The position numbers and the translations under genes are program-made. The notes under the pieces are model-generated. The model was not told the DNA's origin. It made no database searches and saw only the letters and a list, made by a program, of their open reading frames with translations. DNA of 64,000 nt from an uncultured Candidatus Saccharibacteria bacterium (GTDB lineage Bacteria; Patescibacteriota; Minisyncoccia; Phycocordibacterales; CAIRYW01). The stretch covers positions 1,432 to 65,431 of the forward strand of contig CAYUPH010000005.1 in assembly GCA_964446625.1 (NCBI GenBank). Direction: 5' to 3'. Shown one piece after another: positions 13,701 to 64,000 of this stretch (its first letter is position 1; every line of letters starts with the position of its first letter).

Positions 13701-16232
13701 AACTTTCTGTTTGAAATGCCCGAAGGAATTTCATGGGACTCAACAGGAGAGTATTTATATGTAGGAACCGAATCCGACTATTGGTCTGTGTGGCGCACAA
13801 CTTCCTATGGAATGAGAAATACATTTTCAGGTCTCTCAGACGGTTCATATAATCTGTATGCAAGTGTCACAGATACAGATGGTATCACTTCAACAACAAC
13901 TGCTCGTTCATTTACAGTGGGTAGTGATGTAACTGCACCTTCAATTTCTAGCGTTGCTTCTTCTACGGATGCTACATCTGCAACAATTACATGGAGCACA
14001 AACGAAGCAGCATCTTCATCGGTACGTTTCGGTCTTTCTACTGCTTACTCTTCTGGTGTTTCTACATCAAGCGGTTCAACAAGTCATTCGGTCAACCTTT
14101 CAGGACTTAATTCAGGTACGCTATATCACTTTGCTGTTTATGCTGCCGACGCTTCAGGGAATAGCGCAACAACAACTGATTATACTTTTACAACAACTTC
14201 AGCACTCGACACCACCCCTCCCGTAATCTCAAGCGTTGCCTCTACAACCACAGTAACAACAGCAACTGTTACGTGGACAACTGATGAATCATCAGACTCT
14301 ACGGTATGGTACGGCACTCTCTCTGGTAGCTACACAACCTCAACAACAAGCGCATCCCTCGTTACAAGCCACAGTCTAGGTCTCACAGGACTCTCTGCAG
14401 AATCAACATACTACTTTGTTGTTGTATCTAAAGACGCTTCAAACAACACTTCAACTTCATCTGAATACACTCTTCTTACTACCGCAGCTCCCGATACAAC
14501 AGCCCCTGTTATCTCTTCTGTTGCGACAAGTACCACATCTACAACCGCAACAATTACATGGAGTACAAATGAAAATGCAACATCAACTGTAAATTACGGT
14601 ACAACTTCAAGTTATGGATCTGCGTCAACATCTGCATCCTTTACCACTTCACACTCAATTACACTCACCGGACTCTCTCCACTTACAACTTACCACTTCC
14701 AAGTATCTTCTGGAGATTCTTCTTACAACTACGCAACAACAAGTGACTATACAGTGGTGACGGGGGCGGATACGACAGGTCCTACAATTTCTAATATTTC
14801 AGTGAGTGAAACTTCGAGTGGAGGAACTATTTCATGGACTACTGATGAACTTGCTTCTTCACTTGTAGCGTATGGACCAGGAACTACTTTTGGAGCAACA
14901 ACTACCGAAACCGATACTTCTCCACGAGTACTGTCTCATTCTGTAGTCTTTTCTGATCTTTTAGCTTGTTCAAGGTACTTCTTTAGAATTGCATCTGAAG
15001 ATGCTGCGGGAAATAGATCATATTCATCAGAAAGCGCTTTTTCAACAACTGGTTGTACAGGGTCAGCTAGTATTGAAGAAGTAGAAGTTGAAAATCTAGA
15101 CGTTTCAACAGGAGGTGCACTTTCAGTTGGGGGAAGCGGTCAACAGATAACTTTAGACATACCAGCAGATGCGACTGCTACATCTTCATCTCTTACATTC
15201 CAACTAAAAATTATTTCTGATAGTAGCGTTATTGATTCTATTAGTACTCCTGCAGACAAATCGGTTGCAGAGGGACATATATATGATTTGAAGGCATTCA
15301 TAAATGCCACAACTACACTTTCAACTTTTGATGAGCCTCTCACTATCACACTCTCGTATGATGATAGTGATGTGCGAGGAGTGTCTGAGTCGTCACTTTT
15401 AATTTATCGATATGATAGCGGTTCTTGGACACCTTTGTCTAACTGTTCCGTAAATACTTCGGCAAACACTATAACTTGTGAGACAGATCATTTCTCAGTT
15501 TTTGGTCTCTTTGGAACTACCCAAAGAAGTAGTAGCGGTGGCGGAAAAAAAGGAGGGAGTTCAAATAAACCAAAAAACACAGATAATACTGTCGCTACTT
15601 CTACTCCAGCGCTAAATAATCCGGTAGTAAATATTTCTGTGTTTACTAAACTACTTGTACTCGGCACTGTTGATACAGAAGTTCTTACGCTTCAGAGGTT
15701 TTTAAACCGTGATCCATTAACTCGAGTTGCAACAACTGGTGTCGGGTCTCCCGGATTTGAGACTTCCAGATTTGGAGAACTTACAAAAGAGGCGGTTATA
15801 AAATTTCAGATTAAAAATGGTATTATTGCTTCTAGGGAAAGTGTTTCTGCCGGAGTTGTCGGACCTCAAACTCGCCTCAAACTAAATTCACTTATTACTG
15901 ACACTTCTACAAGCCCAGTTGTAACAACTCCGAGCGGTCCCGTTGCTCTGGTGCCTTCAAACCAGGTTCTCACAGAGAACTTAGTGCTTGGAACTATAAG
16001 TCCACAAGTTAAAATACTACAACAATTTTTAAACCAGGATTTATCGACTCAGATCGCTCAAAGTGGACCAGGTTCAAATGGGCAAGAGACAGAAAAATTC
16101 GGTTCTCTTACTAAGGAGGCAGTTATTAAATTCCAAATAAAATACGGAATTATAAAAGATAGAACAGACCAATTTGCAGGAACAGTAGGCCCAAATACAC
16201 GTGAGAAGATAAATCTTCTTTTAAAAAAATAA
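10743..16232 (+). CDS. giant secreted cell-surface protein (1829 aa): signal peptide, DUF2341/LamG-like lectin region, multiple Fn3-like modules, C-terminal two peptidoglycan-binding (PG_binding_1) domains
   Basis: Signal peptide MYRRKKVVLLFFILFSLFTHTPRVYG. WWDASWQKRIKITF (DUF2341-like start). Repeated TxAPxISSVAxxTTxTxATITWxTNE Fn3-like modules. C-terminal LVLGTVDTEVLTLQRFLNRD...KFQIKNGI and LVLGTISPQVKILQQFLNQD...KFQIKYGI (PG_binding_1-like, x2). Confidence 0.8.
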   Translation: MYRRKKVVLLFFILFSLFTHTPRVYGVDAWWDASWQKRIKITFANAGRAENLTNFPVLVSLSSSRIDFSDVNSNGSDLRFVDADGTTVLDYEIEKWNPSGTSSVWVRVPQIDASSDTDYIYLYYKNAGASSGANPSGVWDSSYLSVLHMGDNPTSSGPQQDSTANNSDATSIALSATTTGAIGDALDLNGTTQYVQYASTTLPTPLNAGTVEVIYNPDTFASDVNGRYLFTKDKSGTYMGEWRLMLGSESAAPAQSNKLAFRIECPTSLGGNGNAWAVVSDIAPQLAGGWYSATAVWNKAGGAGNMKLYWNGTATGTPYLNTTAVATADPTCAMEVSGEKPEIGRNNGKTTQDGYFDGQMDEFRISNVVRSANWINATYASSFDTLNTYASAETPPDTTPPVISSVASTTAVTTATVTWTTDESSDSAVWYGTLSGSYTTSTTSASLVTSHSLGLTGLSAESTYYFVVVSKDASNNTSTSSEYTLLTTAAPDTTAPVISSVATSTTSTTATITWSTNENATSTVNYGTTSSYGSASTSASFTTSHSITLTGLSPLTTYHFQVSSGDSSYNYATTSDYTVVTGASTPSAPTSLVATGYDGKVNVKWTNPGGTITDYAVEYKLSSDSVWSMFSDGVSTATSSIVTGLTNNSAYDFRVTTINSGSYSASSSPVSATPQVVISFISPTITGGTSTTSTSITGYASSTIATPSYMTFRLETNGGTLVSEATTTTRYGDYNISNLATTTNKQDLSITGDLSGVAYVPTTDTLFTIHNNQNVIHEVTRAGVNVRTITCSSCNDAEDITLVSSVASTTVGGYDHTFLISTEDVDTTNHQVFRVVIHSTGAATVNRTTYYSTGISSSPYTNNGLEGVAYNSNTGHFYAALEGQQNDTGEPKLYEVTPGNIATHSATNQRICTNLNFRDYTTTDATRFPASPGYADISGLYYEATNNHLYVLSHMGDKMLELDISDTSNCVVLRQKGVVTRADSGSNFLFEMPEGISWDSTGEYLYVGTESDYWSVWRTTSYGMRNTFSGLSDGSYNLYASVTDTDGITSTTTARSFTVGSDVTAPSISSVASSTDATSATITWSTNEAASSSVRFGLSTAYSSGVSTSSGSTSHSVNLSGLNSGTLYHFAVYAADASGNSATTTDYTFTTTSALDTTPPVISSVASTTTVTTATVTWTTDESSDSTVWYGTLSGSYTTSTTSASLVTSHSLGLTGLSAESTYYFVVVSKDASNNTSTSSEYTLLTTAAPDTTAPVISSVATSTTSTTATITWSTNENATSTVNYGTTSSYGSASTSASFTTSHSITLTGLSPLTTYHFQVSSGDSSYNYATTSDYTVVTGADTTGPTISNISVSETSSGGTISWTTDELASSLVAYGPGTTFGATTTETDTSPRVLSHSVVFSDLLACSRYFFRIASEDAAGNRSYSSESAFSTTGCTGSASIEEVEVENLDVSTGGALSVGGSGQQITLDIPADATATSSSLTFQLKIISDSSVIDSISTPADKSVAEGHIYDLKAFINATTTLSTFDEPLTITLSYDDSDVRGVSESSLLIYRYDSGSWTPLSNCSVNTSANTITCETDHFSVFGLFGTTQRSSSGGGKKGGSSNKPKNTDNTVATSTPALNNPVVNISVFTKLLVLGTVDTEVLTLQRFLNRDPLTRVATTGVGSPGFETSRFGELTKEAVIKFQIKNGIIASRESVSAGVVGPQTRLKLNSLITDTSTSPVVTTPSGPVALVPSNQVLTENLVLGTISPQVKILQQFLNQDLSTQIAQSGPGSNGQETEKFGSLTKEAVIKFQIKYGIIKDRTDQFAGTVGPNTREKINLLLKK
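11931..12491 (+). repeat. copy 1 of a 561-bp intragenic direct repeat (two Fn3-like modules)
   Basis: Nearly identical to 14208-14768. Only about 2 mismatches seen (ccgcagta/ccacagta, tctgcggt/tctacggt). Confidence 0.85.
14208..14768 (+). repeat. copy 2 of the 561-bp intragenic direct repeat
   Basis: See copy 1. Spacing between copies is 2277 nt, in frame in both. Confidence 0.85.
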
Positions 16233-51826: not shown

Positions 51827-52060
51827 ATGAAGAAAGTAACAATTTATTCAACTCCAACCTGTACTTACTGCAATCTTGCAAAAGCGTACTTTAAAGAAAA
51901 TAGCGTAGACTATTCAGAATTTGATGTTGCTGCAGATGCAGATAAACGAAAAGAAATGGTAGAAAAAAGCGGTCAAATGGGAGTTCCTGTTATTGATATC
52001 GAAGGAGATATTGTTGTCGGTTTTGACAAAGAAACTATAGAACACCTTCTCCACGCATAA
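51827..52060 (+). CDS. glutaredoxin-like protein (NrdH/YruB type)
   Basis: KVTIYSTPTCTYCNLAKAYF (CxxC), GVPVIDIEGDIVVGFD. GGTATAAT box at 51781-51789 favours the ATG at 51827 over the track's 51794. Confidence 0.7.
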   Translation: MKKVTIYSTPTCTYCNLAKAYFKENSVDYSEFDVAADADKRKEMVEKSGQMGVPVIDIEGDIVVGFDKETIEHLLHA

Positions 52061-52062
52061 AA

Positions 52063-52095
52063 CAAAAAACTCGCCCTAGGGCGAGTTTTTTGTTA
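52063..52095 (+). terminator. rho-independent terminator after the glutaredoxin gene
   Basis: aaaaaaCTCGCCCtagGGCGAGtttttt. Confidence 0.55.
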
Positions 52096-52098
52096 TAT

Positions 52099-52170
52099 TT
52101 GCTTAGTAGCCCCCGTAGTTAAATGGATATAACAGTCCCGTCCTAAGGGATAGTTGTAGGTTCGATTCCT
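52099..52170 (+). tRNA. tRNA-Arg (anticodon CCU), CCA not encoded
   Basis: Hand fold: acceptor GCCCCCG/CGAGGGC (one C-A mismatch at 5:68), D arm GTTA/TAAC with AATGGATA loop, anticodon stem GTCCC/GGGAT with loop gtCCTaa, T arm GTAGG-TTCGATT-CCTGC. Confidence 0.55.
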
Positions 52171-52289
52171 GCCGAGGGCACAAAAAAGCGAAGTGTATTT
52201 TGTGGCTCCGAGTAAATAAGCTATTTATCCTTTGTGGAAAATCAGAAGTTTTTAAATGATAAAAGTAAAATAAAAAAACCACTTTACCT

Positions 52290-52556
52290 CTAAATAGTAG
52301 GAAAAAGTGGGTCAGGACCAAGGTCTCTTTTGTGCGCCTTATCACGCCTATCAACGAGATTTTGCATGTAAGCATCACGCTGCTCAGGTGAAAGGGTAAA
52401 GAGGTAGACTGGGTCATTATCGTAGCATGGGTGGAACTCATCTTGGCGAAGCCAAAGCCTTCTCCAAAATGTTCTCATGGGTCCTGGCAGACAAATGCAT
52501 AATTTTCGATCTACTTTGTCCCGTATTGTGGCGAAGAGATTAAGGTTTAGTTTCAT
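52290..52556 (-). CDS. hypothetical protein (88 aa)
   Basis: Non-repetitive composition with Trp/Cys content atypical of spurious AT-rich ORFs. AAGGAG lies only about 1 nt from the ATG, so the start is uncertain. Confidence 0.35.
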   Translation of the reverse strand: MKLNLNLFATIRDKVDRKLCICLPGPMRTFWRRLWLRQDEFHPCYDNDPVYLFTLSPEQRDAYMQNLVDRRDKAHKRDLGPDPLFPTI

Positions 52557-52639
52557 ACTCCTTTAATTTTAACTTAAATCTATTAAATTTAAAAGCATAT
52601 TTTTAATCTCCTTATTTTGTAGTATAGTAAGAAAACTAT

Positions 52640-53503
52640 ATGAAAATCGAAAAAGTTAAAGCTGAGCCAGAGTACGAACTTCTCGACAGTGGAGAAGGTG
52701 AAAAACTAGAACGGTTTGGAGAATTCACACTGCGCCGCCCTGATCCGGGTGCTCTATGGTGGAAGGCTCTTCCAGAAGAGAGCTGGAAAAACGCAGAGGG
52801 TTACTTTAAACGATCGGGGACAAAAGGGAACTGGATCCTTTCTCCAAAAATGACAAAAAGCTGGCAGATTTCTTTTGGTGGCCTTACTCTTAAAATTGTT
52901 CCAAGTCCATTTAAACACACAGGACTTTTTCCAGAGCAACTTGCAAACTGGCAGTGGATGGAAGAGAAAATAAAAAAAGCAGGAAGGCCTATAAAAGTTC
53001 TAAACCTTTTTGGATACACAGGCGGAGCTACGCTTGCACTTGCAAAAGCTGGAGCTGAAGTAACACACATAGACGCATCAAAAAGCGCAATTACATGGGG
53101 AAGAGAAAATGCGAAACTTTCAAACCTTGAAAACTCACCAATAAGGTGGATTTTGGAAGACGCAAAAATGTTCGTCAAAAGGGAGCTTAAAAGGGGAAAT
53201 AAGTATGACGGGATTCTGCTTGATCCGCCGGCTTTTGGGCATGGTCCAAATGGTGAGACATGGAAGATTGAGGAGGACCTACTCCCACTAATTGAAGACA
53301 CAAAAGCTCTTCTTTCTGAAAACCCACTTTTTTACCTCATAAACGGCTACTCCGCAGGGTATTCGGCAATTGCCTATGGAAACACGATAAATGACCTTAA
53401 AACACGTTTTGGAGGCGATATAGAAGAAGGTGAACTCTGTCTTGAGGAAAAGGGAGGCAGGCTCCTTCCTGCGGGTATCTTTGCAAGGTGGTCAAATTTG
53501 TAA
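52640..53503 (+). CDS. class I SAM-dependent rRNA methyltransferase, RlmI/RlmK-like (Methyltrans_SAM)
   Basis: LNLFGYTGGATLALAKAGAEVTHID (motif I) and ILLDPPAFG (motif IV DPP). Confidence 0.7.
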   Translation: MKIEKVKAEPEYELLDSGEGEKLERFGEFTLRRPDPGALWWKALPEESWKNAEGYFKRSGTKGNWILSPKMTKSWQISFGGLTLKIVPSPFKHTGLFPEQLANWQWMEEKIKKAGRPIKVLNLFGYTGGATLALAKAGAEVTHIDASKSAITWGRENAKLSNLENSPIRWILEDAKMFVKRELKRGNKYDGILLDPPAFGHGPNGETWKIEEDLLPLIEDTKALLSENPLFYLINGYSAGYSAIAYGNTINDLKTRFGGDIEEGELCLEEKGGRLLPAGIFARWSNL

Positions 53504-53546
53504 AAAGAGGGCCTATTTGCTAGAATAAACGCGTACTTTAAAGAAC

Positions 53547-53852
53547 ATGATGTTAGACGAGGAACAGACATTAGAAGAAATTCGGGAAATGACCGAAGAG
53601 AATAATAAGATGCTCCGATCACTCCGCCGAACTGCGCGAGTAGGTGCCTTTTTTAAATTCTTCTACTGGATGGTGATTTTGGGCGCTGGAATTGGTGCTT
53701 TCTACTACATTCAGCCGTACTTAGAAGAGCTTCAAAAAGTGTACTCAAACATTCTTGATGCCCAGAAGAAGGTTCAAGAAATTCCTAAGTCTTTCTCTGA
53801 CTTCTTTAAAGGAAACAAAGAGGAAACAAAAGAAGTAAAAGAGGTTAAGTAG
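53547..53852 (+). CDS. hypothetical small membrane protein (101 aa)
   Basis: One TM (FFKFFYWMVILGAGIGAFYYI) flanked by charged helices. Confidence 0.45.
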   Translation: MMLDEEQTLEEIREMTEENNKMLRSLRRTARVGAFFKFFYWMVILGAGIGAFYYIQPYLEELQKVYSNILDAQKKVQEIPKSFSDFFKGNKEETKEVKEVK

Positions 53853-53887
53853 GGAGCCGGTTCAGGCGAGAGAAAAAATAAATATAT

Positions 53888-53963
53888 GCCAAGGTAGCTC
53901 AGTTGGTAGAGCATGTCCCTGAAGAGGATGGGGTCGCCGGTTCGAGCCCGGCCCTTGGCACCA
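53888..53963 (+). tRNA. tRNA-Phe (anticodon GAA), CCA encoded
   Basis: GCCAAGG-TA-GCTC-AGTTGGTA-GAGC-A-TGTCC-CTGAAGA-GGATG-GGGTC-GCCGG-TTCGAGC-CCGGC-CCTTGGC-A-CCA. All stems pair. Confidence 0.85.
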
Positions 53964-54310
53964 CAAATAAACCGCCTGAGGGCGCTTTTTGTGTGACAAG
54001 GGAGGAAGTGAACTGCCTTAGCCTTATTTGCGTCAGTATATTGACACTTTAAAAATTAGTGATATGGTTTTTATGTGAAGAAAAAAATCCTGATCTTTAC
54101 AGTGGCGGCCTCATGCTTTTGCCCCTGTTTGATTTTGCTTCACGAGGTTGGGATGTGCGAACGAACACTGAAAGGAGAGTTGGTGTTCGTGAACATAGGT
54201 CTGTGCGAGTTTGCAGTCTTTTGGCTGCTATTTGCCGGATTGACTTGTTTTCTCCTCAACCGATTCGTGAGGAATTGATAATTAGCCCGCCTCGAAAGAG
54301 CGCGGGTTTT

Positions 54311-54763
54311 TTAAATAGATTTTACTCGAAGCTTTGTTTGCTTTCCTTTGTCTATCTTTGGAAGTTTGATTGTGAGCATACCTTGGTTTTCAGTTGCCTC
54401 TGCATGGTCAATATCAATCTCTTGGGGAAGGAGTACGGTTCTTGCAAATGAGCCCCAGTAGAGCTCTCGGTGAAAATAGTTTTCCTCTGGCACGCTGTCG
54501 TCGATTTCGCGCTTTCCTTTTATTGTAATCATGTCCCTAGAGAGGATTATGTCGAGGTGTTCTTTTCGAACGCCTGCAACAATTGTTTTTACAACAAGGT
54601 GGCCTCCTGTTTCAAATACATCAACAGTGAGTTGTCCGTGTGGGTCTTCTGCTTCGGTCCAAGTCTCTGCGCCCTCTCTACTTTCTGACTCATCTAAAAA
54701 TTCTTCGCCCTCATCGTCGGGAGCAATTGCTTTTGTGAACTTGCTAAAAAAAGACTTCTTCAT
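54311..54763 (-). CDS. Hsp20/alpha-crystallin family small heat-shock protein
   Basis: Alpha-crystallin domain pattern (LTVDVFETGGHLVVKTIVAGVRKEHLDIILS...GMLTIKLPKI). 150 aa. Confidence 0.75.
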   Translation of the reverse strand: MKKSFFSKFTKAIAPDDEGEEFLDESESREGAETWTEAEDPHGQLTVDVFETGGHLVVKTIVAGVRKEHLDIILSRDMITIKGKREIDDSVPEENYFHRELYWGSFARTVLLPQEIDIDHAEATENQGMLTIKLPKIDKGKQTKLRVKSI

Positions 54764-54764
54764 G

Positions 54765-55454
54765 CTATATGTTTTTTATTTTTTTAATTTTTTCGAGAAC
54801 AAGGATTGTTGCTATGACGCCAACCCACACGCCTGTAAAAATGATTAGAGGATGCACCCTCTCTGCAATTATAAAACTGTTAAAGAGTGCATGCAATAGG
54901 ACAGCGAGGATAACTCCAGTTGCGATTATGAATTTTCGGAGATTTCCTTTTTTATAAAACACATATCCATAGAAAATTCCGATAAGTGCTGAACAGACTA
55001 CATGGAGGAGTGTTGGTCCGATGAAGCGTAGGTTTGCTGTCACAAAACTATTCATATATTCGTTCTTGTAGAGCGAACCTAAGACAAAAATAAAGTTTTC
55101 AAATGCTGCAAAACCAAGCGCGGTTGAGATAAGGTAGATTGCTGGGTCAATTGGTTCGTCGGTAAATCGCGTGTGAATTGCAGCAATATATGCACCAGCA
55201 AATTTCAAAATTTCTTCTACTGCAGCCCAAATCACAACTATAAGTGGACCCGATTCTCCGAAGAGTCTGCCTGAGAGGTCTTCAAAAAAGAGCGCGACAA
55301 TTGTAATAACCATACCCATTACAAAAGCGCGGAGAATAAGACTTCTTGGTTCTCCGTGTGCGTCCTCTTTTAGCCAAAATTTGAGCCAAAAAAAAGCGGG
55401 TACAATACCACCTACCAGTGCAAAGACAACTCCTATTTGATCAATACCTTCCAC
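54765..55454 (-). CDS. PrsW-like intramembrane protease family membrane protein
   Basis: 7-8 TM helices with conserved acidic pair in AAVEEILKFAGA and FENF motifs. Family call is tentative. Confidence 0.5.
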   Translation of the reverse strand: MEGIDQIGVVFALVGGIVPAFFWLKFWLKEDAHGEPRSLILRAFVMGMVITIVALFFEDLSGRLFGESGPLIVVIWAAVEEILKFAGAYIAAIHTRFTDEPIDPAIYLISTALGFAAFENFIFVLGSLYKNEYMNSFVTANLRFIGPTLLHVVCSALIGIFYGYVFYKKGNLRKFIIATGVILAVLLHALFNSFIIAERVHPLIIFTGVWVGVIATILVLEKIKKIKNI

Positions 55455-55490
55455 GAGTTTATTATACCTCGTTTTTTAAAGCTTCGAAAA

Positions 55491-57650
55491 TTATTTTATC
55501 GGCCACTTTTCAACCATGAGAAGAGAAGTGTGTCCCATGAGCCCCCAAATTTCTTCTGTGACAAATGGCATGAATGGGTGAAGAGTCTTTAGTAATTTAT
55601 CTAAAGTGTGAAGAAGGAATTGCTTTCGAGATTTCTTTTCCTCATCGCTTCCTTCTGCAAAAATCTTTTTACTGTCCTCGATTATTTTATCTGCGAACTC
55701 GTACCAAACATAACTGTAAATTTTTTCTGAAGCTATATGGAACATGTAGGCGTCCATTTCTTTTGTAATTTCTACAAGAAGATTGTGTCGAATACTTCGA
55801 AGCTCAAGGTCTTTTTCGGTATAACTTTCAAAATCCGCTATTAGAGTTTCGTCTTTTGTATTTTCAAGTACAAACCGAGTAATGTTCCAGAGTTTGTTAG
55901 CAAAGTGTTTATAGCCTTTGATTTTGTCCTCTGAAATCTTGCTGTCCGTTCCGGGAGCCGTTCCATAGATAAGAGCCATACGAGCTGCGTCAGCGCCGTA
56001 TTTTTTTGAAATTTCGAGTGGGTCCAGTGCGTTTCCGAGTGACTTACTCATTTTTTCTCCTTTACCGTCTCGTACCATGCCGTGGAGGTATACTTCTTTA
56101 AATGGAACTTCTCCTAGGACATATGTCGACATAAGAATCATACGAGCAACCCAGAAGAACAAAATGTCGTATCCTGTCTCGAGTACGCTTGTGGGGTGGT
56201 ATGTTTTTAAATCTTCTGTTTTTTCTGGCCAACCAAGGGTAGAAAAAGTCCAAAGTCCAGATGAAAACCAAGTGTCTAGTGTGTCGGGGTCTTGCTCGGC
56301 TTCTAATCCTTCCGTCTTTTCTCCAACTGCTACAATTTCTCCGTCTTTGTACCATACGGGAATCCTATGTCCATACCAAATTTGTCTCGAAATACACCAG
56401 TCGCGCAGATTTTCAATCCAATGGAAGTATGTTTTTCCAAAGTATTCGGGAATAATTTTTATGTCCCCAGAAGAAACGGCTTCCTGCATTAGTTCCTTTA
56501 GACTTTTGCCACGAGACTGGATTTTTTTGTTTACAGCAATAAACCATTGAAGTTTTGGAAGCGGTTCGATCACTCCGCCAGTTCGCTCGGCGGTTGAAAC
56601 GTTTTGAGTGATTTCTTTTTCTTCTATCATGAGACCTTTTTCTCGAAGGAACTCTGCAACAACTTCCCTTGCTTCCGTGGTTTTTTTGCCAATGATGCTT
56701 TCATTTCCAATCATCATTTTTGCATATTCGTTTATAACCTGAATAGATGGGAGGCCATGAGTTTCTGCCATTTCTGCGTCAACCATGCTGTGTGCTGGAG
56801 TCACACCAAGTGCACCGGTTCCAAATTCCATTTCTACTTTCTTGTCGGCGATAATTTTAATACAGAGGTCGACTCCACAAAAATCTTTTACTTCAAAGGT
56901 TTTTCCTACGAATTCCTTGTAGCGAGGATCATCAGGGTGTACAGCAACAGCAGTGTCCCCAAGCTTTGTTTCAAGTCTAGTTGTTGCAACGGGGATAGGG
57001 AAGTCCGCAGAGTATTTAAATGTGTAGAGTTTTGCTTTTCGTTCCTCGTATACGATTTCATCATCTGAAATTGTTGTTTGTCCTTTAGGATCCCAGTTAA
57101 CAACTCTGTTCTTTCGGTAAATGAGTCCATCGTTATACATCAATTTAAAAACAGCGTTTACTGCTTTGTTTCGTGCAGTGTCTAGTGTAAAAGCTTCGCG
57201 CGACCAATCACAACTTGCTCCCATTGCTTTGACTTGAGAAACAATCGTATCATGACTGCTTTGTGCAAATTCGCCAACTCTCTTTAAAAGTTCTTCTCGC
57301 CCAAGGTCGTGTCTCGAGAGTCCTTCTTTTTTTGAAATTTCTTTTTCTACTTTTGACTGAGTTGCAATCGCAGCATGGTCAGTTCCAGGTAGCCACAAAG
57401 TTTTAAAGCCTCGCATTCGCTTGTAGCGAATCATAAGATCTTCTGTTGCCAGCATAAGTGCGTGTCCCATGTGGAGGATTCCAGTCACATTCGGTGGGGG
57501 AAGGATAATAGAGAAAGGTTTGGCGTCCTCTGCTGTCACTCCCTTTTCTATACACTGGTCTGGGTTAAAAAAACCGCTTTCTTCCCATTTTTGGTAGATT
57601 CGAGGTTCAGTCTCTTCTGGATTGTAGGGCTTTAAAAACTTGTCATTCAT
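55491..57650 (-). CDS. valS: valine--tRNA ligase (short form lacking C-terminal coiled-coil)
   Basis: PPPNVTGILHMGHA (HIGH region, ValRS signature) and KMSKSLGN. 719 aa. Confidence 0.85.
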   Translation of the reverse strand: MNDKFLKPYNPEETEPRIYQKWEESGFFNPDQCIEKGVTAEDAKPFSIILPPPNVTGILHMGHALMLATEDLMIRYKRMRGFKTLWLPGTDHAAIATQSKVEKEISKKEGLSRHDLGREELLKRVGEFAQSSHDTIVSQVKAMGASCDWSREAFTLDTARNKAVNAVFKLMYNDGLIYRKNRVVNWDPKGQTTISDDEIVYEERKAKLYTFKYSADFPIPVATTRLETKLGDTAVAVHPDDPRYKEFVGKTFEVKDFCGVDLCIKIIADKKVEMEFGTGALGVTPAHSMVDAEMAETHGLPSIQVINEYAKMMIGNESIIGKKTTEAREVVAEFLREKGLMIEEKEITQNVSTAERTGGVIEPLPKLQWFIAVNKKIQSRGKSLKELMQEAVSSGDIKIIPEYFGKTYFHWIENLRDWCISRQIWYGHRIPVWYKDGEIVAVGEKTEGLEAEQDPDTLDTWFSSGLWTFSTLGWPEKTEDLKTYHPTSVLETGYDILFFWVARMILMSTYVLGEVPFKEVYLHGMVRDGKGEKMSKSLGNALDPLEISKKYGADAARMALIYGTAPGTDSKISEDKIKGYKHFANKLWNITRFVLENTKDETLIADFESYTEKDLELRSIRHNLLVEITKEMDAYMFHIASEKIYSYVWYEFADKIIEDSKKIFAEGSDEEKKSRKQFLLHTLDKLLKTLHPFMPFVTEEIWGLMGHTSLLMVEKWPIK

Positions 57651-58069
57651 AGGGAAAATATAGCATTTTCCTTGTCTTTTTTCAAAAATGGCATTTCACA
57701 CTAAATATTGTACGATGTATGTATGACAACTGCTCCTTTAATAATGCCGGGCATTTTCGTGCGTTTCACTTCAGAGGGTGCAAGATATTTTGACCATACT
57801 TGTTCATATAGCGTTAATCATTCCTTTAGGACTGATTTGGTTATGGAAGTGCAACATATCATGCCAGGTGGATTTATTCTGCTTAGGTATCAAAAAGGTT
57901 TACCTCACTTAAAAGAGCGAAGAACTCTCTCGCCTGTACTTCTAAAAAGGGCAGGTAAAAGATTTCAAAAGAAAAAAAAGTGTCCTAAAGCAAAACTGAG
58001 AAAAAAGTAAACTCTCAGTTTTTTTTATTTATTATTCTTAAATCTTAATTCCTAAATCTTCATTCAGTA

Positions 58070-59197
58070 TTATATCCTTAAATTTCCCTCCGCTTTGATT
58101 TTTGAGAGAGGTTTTGGCTTTGCAAAAAAACCAGCAACTCCAATCATTACCGCGTTGTCTGTCGCAAGATTTTTAGATGAGAGAACAAAGTCTATACCGT
58201 ATGCTTTTGCCAAGTTCTTCAGATTTTTTGCAATGTATTTGTTTGCAGAAACTCCTCCTCCGACAACTAGGCTTTTTACTTTTTTGTTTTTGAGTGCGTT
58301 CTCTGTTTTCCTTACCAAAACATCTTTAACCGCTTCTTCAAACTCGCTTGCGATCTCCCGTTTCTTTTCGTCGTCTAAATGTGTAATTTTTTGTGTCAGA
58401 TAAAGGACGGCGGTTTTTAGTCCTGAAAAAGAAAAATTTAAATCTTTTGAATTTATCATAGGTCGTGGCAGAACAACCTCTTTTGTTACCTCACCTTTTT
58501 TGTGTAGGATTCGAAATTCTTCTGCATTTTTTGCAACAAGTGGGCCGCCTGGGTACGCGAGTCCAAGGATTCTTGCAACTTTGTCATACGCTTCTCCAGC
58601 CGCATCATCTACTGTTTGTCCGAGAGTGGTATAGGAAAGAGGACTTTTTGCTAAAACAATCTCGGTGTGTCCTCCAGAGATGAGGAGCCCTAGAGCAGGG
58701 AATTCGATTTTTTCTCCCTCTGCAAGGGGTGCAAGAAAATGTCCCTTCATGTGATTGACTGGAACAACTGGTACTCCCCACAAAATAGAAAGTGCTTTTG
58801 CAAAATTTATTCCCACCCAAAGTGTTGGTTCAAGTCCGGGCCCGTTTGTAACAGCAATTCGATCAATTTTTGGCTTTCTTAGAGTGTAAACATATTTCTC
58901 AAAAAGCTGAAGAAGCTCGGGTTCGCGTACGAGAGTTTCTTTTATCTTCTTTTGAATATTTTGTGGAACTGGCGTTTTTGTCTTTTCGGTACAGATTTTT
59001 AGGAGAAGGGGAATTAGTTTTTTTTGGTGTTCTTTTTTTGCAACATTCGGAAACACTCCTCCAAACTCTGCGTGGATACTTGCCTGGGAGAAAAGAGTGT
59101 TTTTGAGAACTTTAAATTTTGGATTTTTACCTGCGCTAACGGAAAGAAGGCAAATACCCGTTTCGTCGCATGAAGTTTCGATTGCTAAAATTTTCAT
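58070..59197 (-). CDS. tsaD: tRNA N6-adenosine threonylcarbamoyltransferase TsaD (Kae1/YgjD family)
   Basis: MKILAIETSCDETGICLL N-terminus and metal-binding VNHMKGHFLA. 375 aa with a short insertion. Confidence 0.85.
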   Translation of the reverse strand: MKILAIETSCDETGICLLSVSAGKNPKFKVLKNTLFSQASIHAEFGGVFPNVAKKEHQKKLIPLLLKICTEKTKTPVPQNIQKKIKETLVREPELLQLFEKYVYTLRKPKIDRIAVTNGPGLEPTLWVGINFAKALSILWGVPVVPVNHMKGHFLAPLAEGEKIEFPALGLLISGGHTEIVLAKSPLSYTTLGQTVDDAAGEAYDKVARILGLAYPGGPLVAKNAEEFRILHKKGEVTKEVVLPRPMINSKDLNFSFSGLKTAVLYLTQKITHLDDEKKREIASEFEEAVKDVLVRKTENALKNKKVKSLVVGGGVSANKYIAKNLKNLAKAYGIDFVLSSKNLATDNAVMIGVAGFFAKPKPLSKIKAEGNLRI

Positions 59198-59372
59198 GCG
59201 GTTAATATAGCAGAAAAGTAGAAAATGGGGTAGGAGCCTTGTTTTAGGATGATTTTTAGATAATCCACAGAAGCAAATTTTAGTGTATTAAAAAAGTATT
59301 AATTCTGTGTTAAAATCGAAAGAAAATGTTGCACAAATCTTTTATTCAAAATTTTTACCTTCTTTTTTACTA

Positions 59373-62300
59373 ATGAAGAAAGAGAGGAAAAAAACAAGGA
59401 GAATATTTGCAATTATTGCACCGTTATTCTTTGAAAGAGAGAAAGGGATTAGTTTCACAAAAGTGAAAGAAGCTTCTTTTCTTGCCTGCATTTTTGCTTG
59501 TTTTCTGTTTCCATTTGCTTATGCAGGAGATATGCCAAGTGTGCCAAACTCGGATATGTGGGTGACAAACGGTACGGTGTATGCAGTACAAACAGATGGT
59601 TCGACAACATATATTGGTGGAAGCTTCACATATGTGGGGCCAAGGACGGGAAATGGTGCCCCAATCAATATTTCTTCTGGTACAGTTACTTCAGGGTATG
59701 AGAATATAAATGGCGTTGTGAGAGCTGTTGTTTCAGATGGATCAGGAGGTTGGTATATTGGAGGGGATTTTACACGAGTTGGGAGTTTTACAAGAAATAG
59801 AGTTGCTCATATTTTATCAGATGGTTCTGTGGATTCGAGCTTTAATCCGAACTCTGGAGGAGCAGTGTATGCACTGGCTTACGATGCTGGAAATTCATTG
59901 CTCTATATTGGTGGAAATTTTATCACTATGAGTGGCTCGACGAGAAATTATATTGCAGCTGTAAATAGTTCCAATGGATCATTATCATCATGGAACCCAA
60001 ATGCAGGCGGTGCGGTTCTTTCTTTAAGTCTAGATTCAGCAAATTCTCAAATATATGTAGGTGGAAGCTTCACGACAATTGGTGGACAATCTCGAAGTCG
60101 AATCGCAGCTTTGAGTACATCTGCCGGAACAGCAACAGCGTGGAACCCGGGCGCGAATAACTCTGTAAACTCTATTGTTGTTGATTCAAGTAATTCTCTA
60201 ATTTATATTGGTGGGGATTTCACTACTGCGGGAGGGCAAACACGAAATTACATTGCAGCCCTTAATTCTTCGGACGGCACAGCAACATCGTGGAATCCTG
60301 CCAGTGGCAGTACTGTTAATTCTCTTGCATTAGATTCAGCTAATTCTCTTATATATGTGGGAGGAGCGTTTACAACTATTGGTGGTCAAACCCGAAACCG
60401 TATTGCCGCCTTAAGTACGGCAGACGGCACAGCAACTGCGTGGAATCCAAACTCTGGGAGTGCTGTGTATCGTGTTGTTCTAGACTCAACAAACTCTCTT
60501 GTTTATGCGGGTGGAAACTTTACTTCTATTGGTGGTCAGACTAGAAACTATGTCGCTGCACTAAGCACTTCCTCAGGTTCTGCTACTTCGTGGAATCCTA
60601 GCCCGGTTAATACCGTTCGTTCCCTTACACTTGATTTGGCTAACTCACAGATATATGTTGGAGGTGACTTTAGTACAATTGGTGGTTCTACAAGAAATAA
60701 CATTGCAGCACTCAATGCCTCGACTGGTTCTCTTACTTCTTGGAATCCAAATGCTGGTAGTACTGTATATGTTCTTACTTTGGATTCAGCAAATTCTCTT
60801 CTCTACGCTGGTGGTGATTTTACAACTATCGGAGGACAAACACGAAACAGAATCGCAGCATTGAGTACTTCCGCAGGAACAGCAACCGCCTGGAATCCTA
60901 ATGCGGGTAGTACAGTGTATGCGTTCAGTTTAGATAATTCAAATTCACTCATATATGTGGGAGGAAACTTCACAACTATCGGAGGACAAACACGAAACAG
61001 AATCGCAGCATTGAGTACTTCCGCAGGAACAGCAACCGCCTGGAATCCTAATGCAGGTAGTACGGTGTATTCGCTTAGTTTAGATAGATTGAATTCACTC
61101 ATGTATGTTGGAGGAAACTTCACTACTATCGGAGGACAAACACGAAACAGAATCGCTGCCCTTAATACTTCAGATGGAACAGCAACAGCATGGGATGCAA
61201 ATGCGGGAGGCACTGTGTATGCAGTAGCGCTCGATACAGACAATGCAGTCGTGTATGCTGGAGGAGCATTCACAACTATCGGAGGGCAAACTCGAAATCG
61301 ACTTGCTGCTTTGAGTCCTTCAGGGGGGACAGCAACGGCGTGGAATCCGAATGCAAATAGTACAGTATACGTATTGCTTCTTGACTCAAACAATACCGTA
61401 CTCTATGTAGGAGGTGATTTTAGTACGATTGGAGTCCAGACCAGAAATAAGGCTGTAGCATTTAAAACTTCCGATGGAAGTACGAACACATGGGATCCAA
61501 ATATTAATAATACAGTGAGAGCGTTTGGGCTTGATCCAACGAATTCGATTCTGGGCGTAGGAGGAGCGTATACTTCTATGGGAGGTAGTAGTCAGCTTTA
61601 TTTTGCCTCATTTGTAAATACTTTTACGATCACAGCTTCTGCTAGTGCGCATGGTACAATTACTCCCCTCGGTGATACTGTTTTAAATGGTGGAGATGAT
61701 CAATCTTATACTATAACGCCCGAAGCACATTATCACGTGGAAGATGTGCTGGTTGATGGTGTGTCTGTTGGTGCAGTTTCAACATATACATTTAGTAACG
61801 TATCAGCGGACCATACGATTTCTGTAAGTTTTTCAATCGATCAACAAACACTAAGTTATAGTGCGGGTGCCCACGGTTCTATCTCAGGAGATATATCGCA
61901 AACAATTGATTATGGGACCAACGGAACTGCGGTTGAGGCAGTAGCTGACTCAGGCTATCATTTTTCAGATTGGTCTGATTCATCGACTGCCAACCCGAGA
62001 ACTGATACAGGTGTAACCGACGATATATCTGTTACTGCCAATTTTGTAATTGACGCCGACATAATTCCGCCAACGGTTTCAATCACTTCGCCTTCTGATT
62101 CAGGTGTTGTCTCGGGGGTGGTGGCATTTTCGGCCGACGCTTCTGACAATATTTCTATTGAAGGGGTAAAGTTTTATTCGAATTCTGCTCTTATTGAAGA
62201 TGATACATCGTATCCTTATTCAGTATCTCTTGATACAGGCTTGATGAGTGATGGAAATTATACTCTAAGTGCAGTTGCAAGAGATACATCAGGCAACTAT

Positions 62301-63785
62301 GCAACTTCAACGAGTGTATTAATAACAGTAGATAGTACTAGTCCAAATATTTCTTCAATTTCCGTCACTGCATCTGAAACAACTGCTGATATTTCTTGGA
62401 CGACAGATGAACCAGCCGACTCACTTATTGATTTTTCTCCTGTTTCTACTTTTATTGCATCTTCTACACCTGACACGAATTTGGTAACAACACATTCAAT
62501 TAGTCTTTTAGAACTTAACTCATGTACAACTTATTATTATCGTGTGAAATCTGTAGACGAAAACAATAATGTTTCTTTTTCTCCTTCGTCAACATTTACT
62601 ACGACAGGGTGTACAGGAAATGCTGAAATCCTTGATGAGACTAATGGTGCAATCACATCACCCGGCGGGTCTTTGTCTTTGCTTGAGGCTGGCACTGGAG
62701 TATCGCTTACAGTTCCTTCAGCGTTCAAATCCGGAGTTTCTACCGCCTACTTTCAGATTAAACAGTTAGAAAGCCTGGATTTCTTAGCTGTTGTTTCTAC
62801 TCCACCTAATGTATCGCTTGTGTCAGGTTATATATATAACCTTGTATCTTTGCCAACAGCAACATCTTCTCTTACTTTATTTGATAATCCGTTAACAGTA
62901 AGTATAGTGTACGATGATGCTGATGTTGAGTCGTTGGATGAGTCTACGTTTACTATATATCGTTATGATGAGGGTGTATGGACACTGCTTTCTAACTGCT
63001 CTGCACATGAGGACACAAACACTGTGACATGTGAGACGTCTCACTTTTCAGAATTTGGACTTTTTGGTCAAGCTCAGTCAATTGATGTAACACCAGGTTC
63101 TTCTTCTGGCACTATAAGTGAAGGAATTCATTATGGTTGCAAAGACTCTAGTGCTTTGAATTATAATTTCTTTTCAAGGCACAAGCAGGATCTTTGCAAG
63201 TACGCAAATAAGGAGATTTCACAGAGTAAGTATAGTTTCAACAGAGATCTGGAATTAGGCATGGTAGGAGATGATGTGCTTGCACTTCAAAAAGTGTTAA
63301 ACTCTCTCGGATTTATTGTCGCACATTCAGGACCAGGATCACCGGGCAATGAGACAAACCTATTTGGTTCCGCAACAAAGTCTGCGCTTATGAGATATCA
63401 AGCATCCATGAATATTTTTCCTTCTAGAGGCTATTTTGGGCCAATGACACGCACAAGAATACAAGAATCGGCTGTTCAGGATGTGATCCAAGCTACTTTG
63501 AGCACTACCCCAGAATCTTCTGTAGAAACAAGCATAAAATTAAAATCATTTTCAAGAGATCTTTCAATTGGTATGACAGGAGAAGATGTAAGGATGCTTC
63601 AAGTTTTTCTTAATTCGAATGGGTATTTAGTGTCTTTGGCAGGAGTTGGATCGCAAGGACATGAAACAAATTATTTTGGAGAAAATACCAAAAAAGCATT
63701 AATACGATTCCAAACCGCTAGTAGCATTACTCCTGCGTTGGGATATTTTGGAAAAGTGACACGAGATTTTGTTAATTCTAAATAA
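59373..63785 (+). CDS. giant secreted cell-surface protein (about 1470 aa): signal peptide, about 14 tandem about-50-aa beta-propeller-type repeats, InlB-B-repeat-like and bacterial Ig-like domains, Fn3, C-terminal two PG_binding_1 domains
   Basis: Start at ATG 59373 (MKKERKK..., signal ...FLFPFAYAG) downstream of a TGTTAAAAT box that overlaps the track's TTG start at 59307. Repeats GGxFTTIGGQTRNRIAALSTSxGTATAWNPNAGSTVYxLxLDxxNSLxYV. C-terminal LELGMVGDDVLALQKVLNSLGF and LSIGMTGEDVRMLQVFLNSNGY (PG_binding_1-like). Confidence 0.8.
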   Translation: MKKERKKTRRIFAIIAPLFFEREKGISFTKVKEASFLACIFACFLFPFAYAGDMPSVPNSDMWVTNGTVYAVQTDGSTTYIGGSFTYVGPRTGNGAPINISSGTVTSGYENINGVVRAVVSDGSGGWYIGGDFTRVGSFTRNRVAHILSDGSVDSSFNPNSGGAVYALAYDAGNSLLYIGGNFITMSGSTRNYIAAVNSSNGSLSSWNPNAGGAVLSLSLDSANSQIYVGGSFTTIGGQSRSRIAALSTSAGTATAWNPGANNSVNSIVVDSSNSLIYIGGDFTTAGGQTRNYIAALNSSDGTATSWNPASGSTVNSLALDSANSLIYVGGAFTTIGGQTRNRIAALSTADGTATAWNPNSGSAVYRVVLDSTNSLVYAGGNFTSIGGQTRNYVAALSTSSGSATSWNPSPVNTVRSLTLDLANSQIYVGGDFSTIGGSTRNNIAALNASTGSLTSWNPNAGSTVYVLTLDSANSLLYAGGDFTTIGGQTRNRIAALSTSAGTATAWNPNAGSTVYAFSLDNSNSLIYVGGNFTTIGGQTRNRIAALSTSAGTATAWNPNAGSTVYSLSLDRLNSLMYVGGNFTTIGGQTRNRIAALNTSDGTATAWDANAGGTVYAVALDTDNAVVYAGGAFTTIGGQTRNRLAALSPSGGTATAWNPNANSTVYVLLLDSNNTVLYVGGDFSTIGVQTRNKAVAFKTSDGSTNTWDPNINNTVRAFGLDPTNSILGVGGAYTSMGGSSQLYFASFVNTFTITASASAHGTITPLGDTVLNGGDDQSYTITPEAHYHVEDVLVDGVSVGAVSTYTFSNVSADHTISVSFSIDQQTLSYSAGAHGSISGDISQTIDYGTNGTAVEAVADSGYHFSDWSDSSTANPRTDTGVTDDISVTANFVIDADIIPPTVSITSPSDSGVVSGVVAFSADASDNISIEGVKFYSNSALIEDDTSYPYSVSLDTGLMSDGNYTLSAVARDTSGNYATSTSVLITVDSTSPNISSISVTASETTADISWTTDEPADSLIDFSPVSTFIASSTPDTNLVTTHSISLLELNSCTTYYYRVKSVDENNNVSFSPSSTFTTTGCTGNAEILDETNGAITSPGGSLSLLEAGTGVSLTVPSAFKSGVSTAYFQIKQLESLDFLAVVSTPPNVSLVSGYIYNLVSLPTATSSLTLFDNPLTVSIVYDDADVESLDESTFTIYRYDEGVWTLLSNCSAHEDTNTVTCETSHFSEFGLFGQAQSIDVTPGSSSGTISEGIHYGCKDSSALNYNFFSRHKQDLCKYANKEISQSKYSFNRDLELGMVGDDVLALQKVLNSLGFIVAHSGPGSPGNETNLFGSATKSALMRYQASMNIFPSRGYFGPMTRTRIQESAVQDVIQATLSTTPESSVETSIKLKSFSRDLSIGMTGEDVRMLQVFLNSNGYLVSLAGVGSQGHETNYFGENTKKALIRFQTASSITPALGYFGKVTRDFVNSK
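59620..61590 (+). repeat. about 13-14 tandem 150-nt coding repeats; adjacent units 60826-60908 and 60976-61058 are identical over about 80 nt
   Basis: Periodicity of exactly 150 nt (50 aa). Produces a long spurious antisense ORF (60803..61393). Confidence 0.8.
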
Positions 63786-63854
63786 GAAGAAAAAGGGTAG
63801 GGAAGATGTGTTTTGAAAGAGATTTTAAGGATGGACCTTGGGTAGGGCCTTTGA

Positions 63855-64000
63855 TTACAGGTTAAAATGCTCTTTTATTTGTTGAGCAGCTTCGCTTGCT
63901 GAAATTTCTGTATTGTTTATTCGCAGGTAATTTGGCTCTTTTACTTCGCCTGGATCAGAATTGACTCTGTGTGTGGTGGTAGATTTTTTTATCTCGTTTT
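63855..64000 (-). CDS. 3' end of a minus-strand gene continuing beyond the window (C-terminus ...SEAAQQIKEHFNL*)
   Basis: Open frame on the reverse strand from the window edge to a TAA at about 63855-63857. Nothing else to identify it. Confidence 0.3.
   Translation of the reverse strand, partial: NEIKKSTTTHRVNSDPGEVKEPNYLRINNTEISASEAAQQIKEHFNL

Follow-up and report, generated by a model that had tools for sequence, protein, structure and literature searches.

The window, by which we mean the whole 64,000-nucleotide (nt) stretch of DNA analysed here, carries on its forward strand, at 59373–63785, a gene for a giant protein of 1470 amino acids (aa) that very probably has a wall-anchored, adhesin-like architecture. 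The gene is the sole long open reading frame (ORF) of its region, which an ORF scan extends to 59307–63785 on the forward strand, opening at a GTG at 59307. The protein opens with a signal peptide, followed in order by 14 DUF5122 blades, a pair of InlB-B-like modules, Big_7, one Fn3-like module, a beta-sandwich with the motif SHFSEFGLFG, and two PG_binding_1 modules. A preliminary description of this DNA had proposed a secreted multi-domain protein, in agreement with the signal peptide, called by eye, and with the Pfam domains. It left the SHFSEFGLFG domain uninterpreted. That unannotated domain is the most informative part of the protein, and its predicted model resembles the ZU5/GPS joints at which animal receptors cleave themselves. 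The features of the gene are as follows.

59373–63785, + strand: whole gene, 1470 aa counted from the ATG at 59373
59373–59525, + strand: signal peptide region with hydrophobic core at aa 34–51 and likely cleavage AYA↓GD after A51, from sequence alone
59550–61613, + strand: DUF5122 ('delta-60'-type) propeller module of 14 blades, from Pfam, YxGG anchors, AlphaFold2 and Foldseek
59754–61553, + strand: twelve blade units of exactly 150 nt (50 aa), from anchor spacing and repeat searches
60822–61054, + strand: blades 9 and 10 with identical tracts, the site of a one-unit difference between assemblies
61620–62051, + strand: two InlB B-repeat-like (Flg_new_2, PF18998) modules, aa 750–822 and 826–893
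62070–62273, + strand: Big_7 (PF17957) bacterial immunoglobulin (Ig)-like domain, aa 900–967, Pfam 58.3 bits against a cut-off of 24.1
62355–62603, + strand: Fn3-like module (Pur_ac_phosph_N type, PF16656), aa 995–1077, 26.1 bits against a cut-off of 30
62604–63074, + strand: ZU5/GPS-like beta-sandwich, aa 1078–1234, with H-F-S codons at 63042–63050 and predicted self-cleavage at F1225↓S1226
63135–63203, + strand: small loop with two cysteines, GCKDSSALNYNFFSRHKQDLCKY, after the ZU5/GPS-like domain and before the first PG_binding_1 module, with a predicted local distance difference test (pLDDT) score of 68–83
63234–63776, + strand: two PG_binding_1 three-helix modules, about aa 1288–1364 and 1393–1468

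AlphaFold2 modelled aa 1078–1470 from 32 sequences with a pLDDT of 86, rising above 90 for the beta-sandwich at aa 1086–1234. The six best Foldseek matches to this model in the Protein Data Bank (PDB) were all ZU5 or GAIN domains (E 2e-6 to 2e-4); they include the ZU5 domain of ankyrin (3ud2_B, E 2e-6), the GAIN domain of BAI3 (4dlo_B, E 1e-5) and UNC5b (3g5b, E 4e-5), and the ZO-1 ZU5 domain (2kxs) gave a template modelling score (TM-score) of 0.62 when normalised to the target. The model places H1224-F1225-S1226 in the turn that joins the last two strands (140–147 and 150–157 in model numbering). We compared 144 relatives, taken as cluster representatives with a full-length domain match whose full-length proteins are no more than 50% identical to one another. 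C1080, C1209, C1220 and T1222 are invariant across these, F1225 and F1228 are each kept in 143, and S1226 is kept in 142 and replaced by Thr in one more. The residue before F1225 varies: it is Asn in 45, His in 41, Ala in 21, Gly in 14, Gln in 10 and Ser in 7. The family is large, with no fewer than 2851 clusters matching at E up to 1e-3 in a library clustered at 50% identity, and all its named members are Patescibacteria.

ZU5, GPS and Nup98 autopeptidases were unified by Zhang et al. in 2012, who also predicted ZU5 autopeptidase processing in large bacterial surface proteins (PMC3482391). With the wider superfamily of ZU5, FIIND, GPS-GAIN and Nup98 domains (in PIDD, UNC5CL, NLRP1, CARD8, adhesion G-protein-coupled receptors (GPCRs) and polycystin-1) the modelled window domain has in common the beta-sandwich, an xF↓S motif before the last strand, a buried Phe, a Ser at the nucleophile position and a tolerant first position. 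A cysteine pair stands just upstream of the motif, as in GPS, and the domain immediately precedes the anchoring part, as GAIN precedes the seven-transmembrane segment. In CARD8, NLRP1, PIDD and Nup98, the Phe and the next Ser are essential for cleavage at xF↓S, and mutation of the first motif residue, a His in PIDD and in Nup98 and a Ser in CARD8, hardly affects it (PMC3210808). The variable first position and near-invariant F-S of the 144 relatives match this mutational tolerance as measured for CARD8 and Nup98.

There are differences too. Unlike the known superfamily members, the window domain gives no significant sequence match and has no UPA or death domain; the helical GAIN subdomain A is absent from the model of aa 1078–1234, whose upstream neighbour is the all-beta Fn3-like module. 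Unlike the animal members, it would be extracellular in a bacterium and followed by wall anchors, and its cleavage is a prediction. The bacterial ZU5 domains of Zhang et al. (PMC3482391) are likewise predicted to let a large extruded surface protein process itself close to its base, but are mostly N-terminal in RHS/TcdB-type toxins, whereas the window domain is C-terminal and anchor-adjacent in adhesin-like proteins that are not toxins. A literature search for ZU5 domains in Patescibacteria returned no papers. Judged from fold, motif and position, the chances that the protein cleaves itself between F1225 and S1226 are evenly poised. The proposal that the domain is the founder of a large, unannotated branch of the ZU5/GPS autoproteolytic superfamily in prokaryotes, positioned before whichever anchor the protein has, falls just short of an even bet.

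As a whole, the product is probably best explained as a Sec-exported, non-covalently wall-bound, adhesin-like protein of Patescibacteria (Parcubacteria/Paceibacteria-type) with a proposed self-cleaving joint and an ancient 14-blade array. After Sec export and removal of the signal peptide, the two C-terminal PG_binding_1 modules would hold the protein on the producer's own peptidoglycan, and four Ig-type modules forming a stalk (the two InlB-B-like ones, Big_7 and the Fn3-like one, with folds taken from profiles) would bear the head, an N-terminal double propeller in our model and the putative ligand-binding part. Between stalk and anchor, the predicted ZU5/GPS-superfamily beta-sandwich would cut itself between F1225 and S1226 via an N-to-O acyl shift, giving an N-terminal fragment of about 1174 aa (head and stalk) and a 245-aa fragment (last strand and anchors). 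The two would stay associated through the embedded last strand, forming a breakaway joint comparable to the GAIN domain of adhesion GPCRs or to FIIND in NLRP1.

Several points weigh against this reading. Pfam gave no ZU5, GPS, Peptidase_S68 or Nup98-autopeptidase match to the window domain at E up to 10. When 61 relatives were scanned singly, GPS was the most recurrent weak match (7 of 61, best E 0.021), and ZU5 (E 0.014) and Peptidase_S68 (the PIDD family) each appeared in one of the 61; these scores fall short of significance, and the assignment to GPS or ZU5 comes from the predicted model. A search of the family profile against the PDB likewise matched no ZU5, GAIN or Nup98 chain. Many ZU5 and GAIN domains do not cleave, and the invariant F-S could be partly structural. 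Outside the domain, the division of the head into two rings of seven blades is drawn only from a model score, the pLDDT profile and Foldseek matches, peptidoglycan binding and the direction of anchoring, to the own wall or a host wall, are predictions, and the signal peptide was called by eye on a protein with an ambiguous start.

The alternative that survives best is that the SHFSEFGLFG beta-sandwich is a mere structural spacer beside the anchor and the protein stays a single chain, which we give a substantial chance, though clearly under one half. The ZU5 domains of ankyrin, UNC5b and ZO-1 and several GAIN domains do not cleave, and the best structural matches (3ud2, 3g5b and 2kxs) are non-cleaving ZU5 domains of this kind; in addition, His occupies the first motif position in a minority of relatives only (41 of 144), and sequence matches to ZU5 or GPS are not significant. 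Against a spacer, the Ser follows the buried Phe in 142 of 144 divergent relatives, which a purely structural turn rarely needs. Non-cleaving UNC5b has Leu where that Phe stands, and the variable first position agrees with mutagenesis of the cleaving domains (PMC3210808).

By its predicted fold, the anchor-proximal domain links bacterial wall-anchored proteins to the self-cleaving joints of animal receptors and inflammasome sensors. If the domain is indeed self-cleaving, giant adhesins would be held on the wall by a non-covalent, force-releasable joint, built on the principle known from GAIN of adhesion GPCRs and SEA of mucins, and would offer a model in bacteria for studying how such joints arose and how they work mechanically. 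Confirmation of cleavage would give a mechanism to thousands of unannotated bacterial proteins and provide a simple system for testing where GAIN/FIIND-type autoproteolysis came from in evolution.

The head of the protein is built from the blade array. Fourteen YxGG anchors lie at aa 80, 128, 178 and so on to 728; the first blade unit measures 48 aa, a repeat search found 10 copies at exact 150-nt spacing, and Tandem Repeats Finder returned a period of 150 with a score of 634, so that the earlier count of about 14 tandem units of about 50 aa holds. Pfam recognised DUF5122 (PF17164) in 7 stretches with 124.2 bits against a cut-off of 27 (E 2e-36), and also matched a Rax2 propeller (E 3e-18). 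Most pairs of units have a DNA identity of 43–69%, and the pair starting at aa 478 and 528 reaches 88%, with an uninterrupted identity of 83 nt (60822–60904 equals 60972–61054). The preliminary description had noticed this identity, at about 80 nt, and was right about the tract, with coordinates 4 nt off (82 of 83 positions match at 60826–60908 and 60976–61058). It had concluded that homogenisation or expansion was ongoing. Of this, local homogenisation of blades 9–11 stands; expansion does not, given the conserved number of blades and the low codon identity between them.

At positions where two blades have the same residue, a median of 43% of codons are identical, the exceptions being blades 9 and 10 (aa 478 and 528; 86%) and blades 10 and 11 (aa 528 and 578; 67%). 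The blades are saturated at synonymous sites, and on account of this codon identity we regard them as old, with just blades 9–11 recently homogenised; the pattern points to one local conversion-like event and no expansion. A recently amplified propeller is ruled out by the codon-level divergence between blades.

Among 22 homologues checked, all with a single module and from distant phyla, 12 have 14 anchors, at a spacing of 42–60 aa. The propeller module was matched by 29 genomic loci, with starts ranging from query aa 2 to 129; 22 of the 29 start at aa 56–66 and reach about aa 750, and most cover about aa 59–747. These homologues include Eisenbacteria, Bacteroidota, Planctomycetes, Legionella (48% identity), Sumerlaeota and Magasanikbacteria. 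Species-representative genomes yielded homologues of the propeller module in other phyla only, and no orthologue of the whole gene. The 14 blades thus appear to be a conserved, ancient unit fixed in number, and because this count is conserved in distant homologues the array is probably old and not expanding. The 59373–63785 gene is a clean example of how great regularity in a repeat array can go together with old age and a fixed copy number. We also noted the same 14-blade DUF5122 module, at 43–48% identity, in Legionella worsleiensis (L006) and L. dresdenensis (L023), cultured species that might be tractable organisms for ligand finding.

AlphaFold2 modelling of aa 53–760 with 22 homologues gave a pLDDT of 85.9 and a predicted template modelling score (pTM) of 0.58, with a dip in confidence in the middle of the module (model residues about 320–400). 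Each 50-aa unit of the model has three regular strands of at least 3 residues by DSSP, plus short bridges. The top Foldseek matches in the PDB were all beta-propellers, the best of them tandem 7+7 structures (2ymu, 1nr0, 5i2t and 4nsx), and 2ymu_A aligned with E 1e-20 and TM-scores of 0.58/0.68. The model thus bears out the earlier suggestion of propeller-like repeats, and its pTM, pLDDT profile and Foldseek matches suggest that the head is two seven-bladed propellers. Structurally closest are the tandem propellers of Nostoc Npun_R6612 (2YMU), Aip1 (1NR0), Pwp2 and Utp21, which arrange 14 blades in two rings, as suggested for the head. These differ in being WD40 proteins, about 11% identical to the head, and are fold analogues rather than family kin; the only WD40 profile matched in Pfam was Beta-prop_WDR3_2nd, whose 33 bits lie below the cut-off of 140.

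The family kin are the DUF5122 or 'delta-60' surface proteins of Bacteroidota and Ignavibacteria, sorted by a secretion system of type IX (T9SS), and of Eisenbacteria and Legionella. They have in common with the window protein a 14-blade module of about 690 aa, 40–50% identical, placed directly after the signal peptide and opening with an N-terminal WVTNG strand. They end in T9SS sorting domains, InlB-B arrays, FlgD-Ig or other modules, whereas the 59373–63785 protein carries its module on a Big_7/Fn3 stalk with the ZU5/GPS-like domain and two PG_binding_1 anchors. In the literature and the PDB we found no solved structure or known ligand for any DUF5122 member; literature searches returned nothing on the 'delta-60 repeat' and only modelling work on DUF5122.

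The number of units differs between assemblies of the same strain. Protein P0001 (contig L001, ERZ27283032) equals the window protein minus aa 483–532 and is otherwise identical; the DNA of this contig is 100% identical over the shared 4.8 kb, with exactly one 150-nt unit absent and the deletion junction inside the 83-nt identical tract. The 71-kb contig L031 (ERZ27283041) has 14 units and is 100% identical to 52000–64000 of the window. Three more, independent same-strain assemblies stop within the array, two at 60364 (L032 and L033) and one at 60851, in the tract (L034). The repeat therefore breaks short-read assembly, and the one-unit difference reflects a true deletion or else a collapse during assembly, both of which predict the same sequence. 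As to the variation in copy number that the preliminary description suggested looking for across strains or metagenomic reads, a 13-unit contig does exist, once, against at least two contigs with 14 units, and it can be read either way.

It is unlikely, in our estimate, that the array is an expanding and contracting contingency repeat of which the 13-blade contig is a real variant. An exact loss of one unit with its junction in an identical tract is what unequal recombination would be expected to leave, but short-read collapse of a near-identical repeat leaves the same pattern, and three same-strain assemblies break in the array, one of them inside the tract. The 14-unit form is found on at least two contigs and the 13-unit form on one, outside blades 9–11 only about 43% of codons at identical residues are the same, and a 7+6 head would miss a blade of its second propeller, where 14 blades are conserved across phyla. 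The conserved blade number and the failure of assemblers at the array are the reasons for rating a real polymorphism low. That the copy-number difference coincides exactly with the only recently homogenised tract is a warning to readers of such variation in metagenome assemblies. Another gene of the window, at 10743–16232, offers a further place at which recombination or misassembly could alter the length of a surface protein, since it has a 300-nt direct repeat (11930–12229 and 14207–14506, 99% identical, 2277 nt apart).

Behind the array of old and fixed blades, the Ig-like and Fn3-like stalk modules named in the preliminary description were found, with mixed scores. The second InlB-B-like module (Flg_new_2, aa 826–893) scores 43.4 bits against a Pfam cut-off of 23.6, and Big_7, above its cut-off as well, matches 9kvu_A, 'bacterial immunoglobulin domain B1', in a PDB sequence search (E 1.5e-6). 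Below their cut-offs are the first InlB-B-like module (aa 750–822, scanned alone, 19.8 bits, E 8e-4) and the Fn3-like module, which aligns with Fn3 repeats of the 10743–16232 protein that themselves score 127 bits, above the cut-off. At the C terminus, PG_binding_1 (PF01471) scores 62.3 bits against a cut-off of 23 in 2 stretches; the two modules are 52% identical to each other and were modelled as two three-helix units (pLDDT about 84–96 as 10-residue block means). The NCBIfam scan gave weak SleB-type PG-binding matches only, and TIGR02608 'delta-60' was absent from it. Covalent LPXTG (sortase) anchoring was rejected, the C-terminal end ...GYFGKVTRDFVNSK falling inside the second PG_binding_1 module.

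In the 144 relatives of the ZU5/GPS-like domain, the tail from the domain to the C terminus has a median length of 188 aa (10th–90th percentile 126–308 aa). It carries one or two PG_binding modules in 94 relatives, a C-terminal transmembrane-like helix in 17 and, by eye, SLH in at least two, with 27 unclassified by script. We assign an anchor role to the C-terminal part because these tails, whether PG_binding, transmembrane-like helix or SLH, are all devices for attachment to the own envelope, and the PG_binding_1 pair would accordingly bind the peptidoglycan of its own cell. Listeria InlB with its GW modules and LysM- or SLH-anchored proteins resemble such an arrangement in Sec export, a binding head, an InlB-type B-repeat stalk and C-terminal repeated wall-binding modules without LPXTG; unlike in InlB, the anchor is PG_binding_1 and the head is a predicted double propeller, not a leucine-rich repeat. 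Three relatives end in CxLWWC and a few more in similar Cys/Trp-rich motifs. Four proteins (P0378, P0380, P0420 and P0486) end, after an Fn3-like module, in CILWWCW, CILWWCF, CFWFICW and CFLWIFCK, and other relatives of the domain have short amphipathic hydrophobic tails at the C terminus. These odd endings may be an undescribed sorting or anchoring signal.

We consider it improbable that the PG_binding_1 modules instead bind the peptidoglycan of a host or prey, the protein being set free to serve in attachment or attack. Life in attachment to host cells is ascribed to many Patescibacteria, and PG_binding_1 also occurs in secreted wall hydrolases, relatives combining an M23 peptidase with PG_binding_1 being common. 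The 1470-aa protein, however, has no catalytic domain in Pfam or NCBIfam, and its relatives have transmembrane helices or SLH in the same position, which act only on the producer's envelope. The main use of the protein is as a candidate factor in attachment to a host. Least probable of all is that the propeller head is an enzyme (for example, glycan- or polymer-degrading) rather than a binding module, for although propeller folds host many enzymes and Zhang et al. (PMC3482391) note ZU5-bearing bacterial surface proteins with glycohydrolases and lipases, no catalytic family was matched in Pfam or NCBIfam, a PDB sequence search with the propeller found no relative, and the conserved positions are the structural YxGG/F/R/W-N-P blade residues that recur in every blade.

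The C-terminal part is shared with the second giant protein of the window, encoded at 10743–16232. BLASTP aligned aa 949–1468 with aa 1304–1824 of that protein (547 columns, 36% identity, E 7e-77), with segment identities of 38% for the Fn3-like module, 45% for the SHFSEFGLFG domain and 37–41% for the anchors. The preliminary description had recognised the common double PG_binding_1 terminus over some 350 aa; the stretch is longer, a cassette of about 520 aa comprising the Fn3-like module, the SHFSEFGLFG domain and both PG_binding modules, which no other protein of the window bears. Its further step, a paralogous family of fibres, fails: whole-gene paralogy was rejected with the alignment limited to this cassette, and the N-terminal parts of the two proteins are unrelated. 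The other protein has an N-terminal DUF2341 and at least six Fn3-type repeats, and the 'lectin head' ascribed to it is an incomplete account, an SdiA-regulated/phytase-like propeller being present as well at aa 747–1010. The two genes appear to share an anchoring cassette, by module sharing. Directly upstream of the 10743–16232 gene, we noted an ORF of 868 aa (8088–10694) without a Pfam match at E up to 0.01.

A homologue search of a 5.8-billion-protein collection, in which 8000 candidates were scored and 5704 matches returned, found the full-length architecture only in the same-strain protein P0001 among the 5704 matches listed. Proteins homologous to the last 388 aa bear the names Paceibacterota, Adlerbacteria, Uhrbacteria, Kaiserbacteria and Parcubacteria, and join one or two PG_binding_1 modules to many different passenger domains. 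As a whole, the protein is an ordinary kind of surface protein of the Candidate Phyla Radiation. LepA of the window is 71–75% identical to proteins named Patescibacteria group, Candidatus Parcubacteria, Paceibacterota and Taylorbacteria.

Which codon starts the 59373–63785 gene is uncertain. No Shine-Dalgarno sequence precedes the ATG at 59373, and a GTG at 59463 lies 14 nt downstream of AAGGGA and would yield a classical 21-aa signal peptide; public gene calls are split between the ATG (1420 aa, contig L001) and the GTG at 59307 (1492 aa, L031). Whether the start is the ATG at 59373 or the GTG at 59463, the hydrophobic core ends in AYA↓GD adjoining the first propeller strand, and in homologues, too, the signal peptide stands immediately before the WVTNG first strand. 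Promoter and terminator scans gave chance-level results only. Neighbouring genes serve housekeeping functions: tsaD, a class-I aminoacyl-tRNA synthetase (tRNA-synt_1), ftsZ and murJ.

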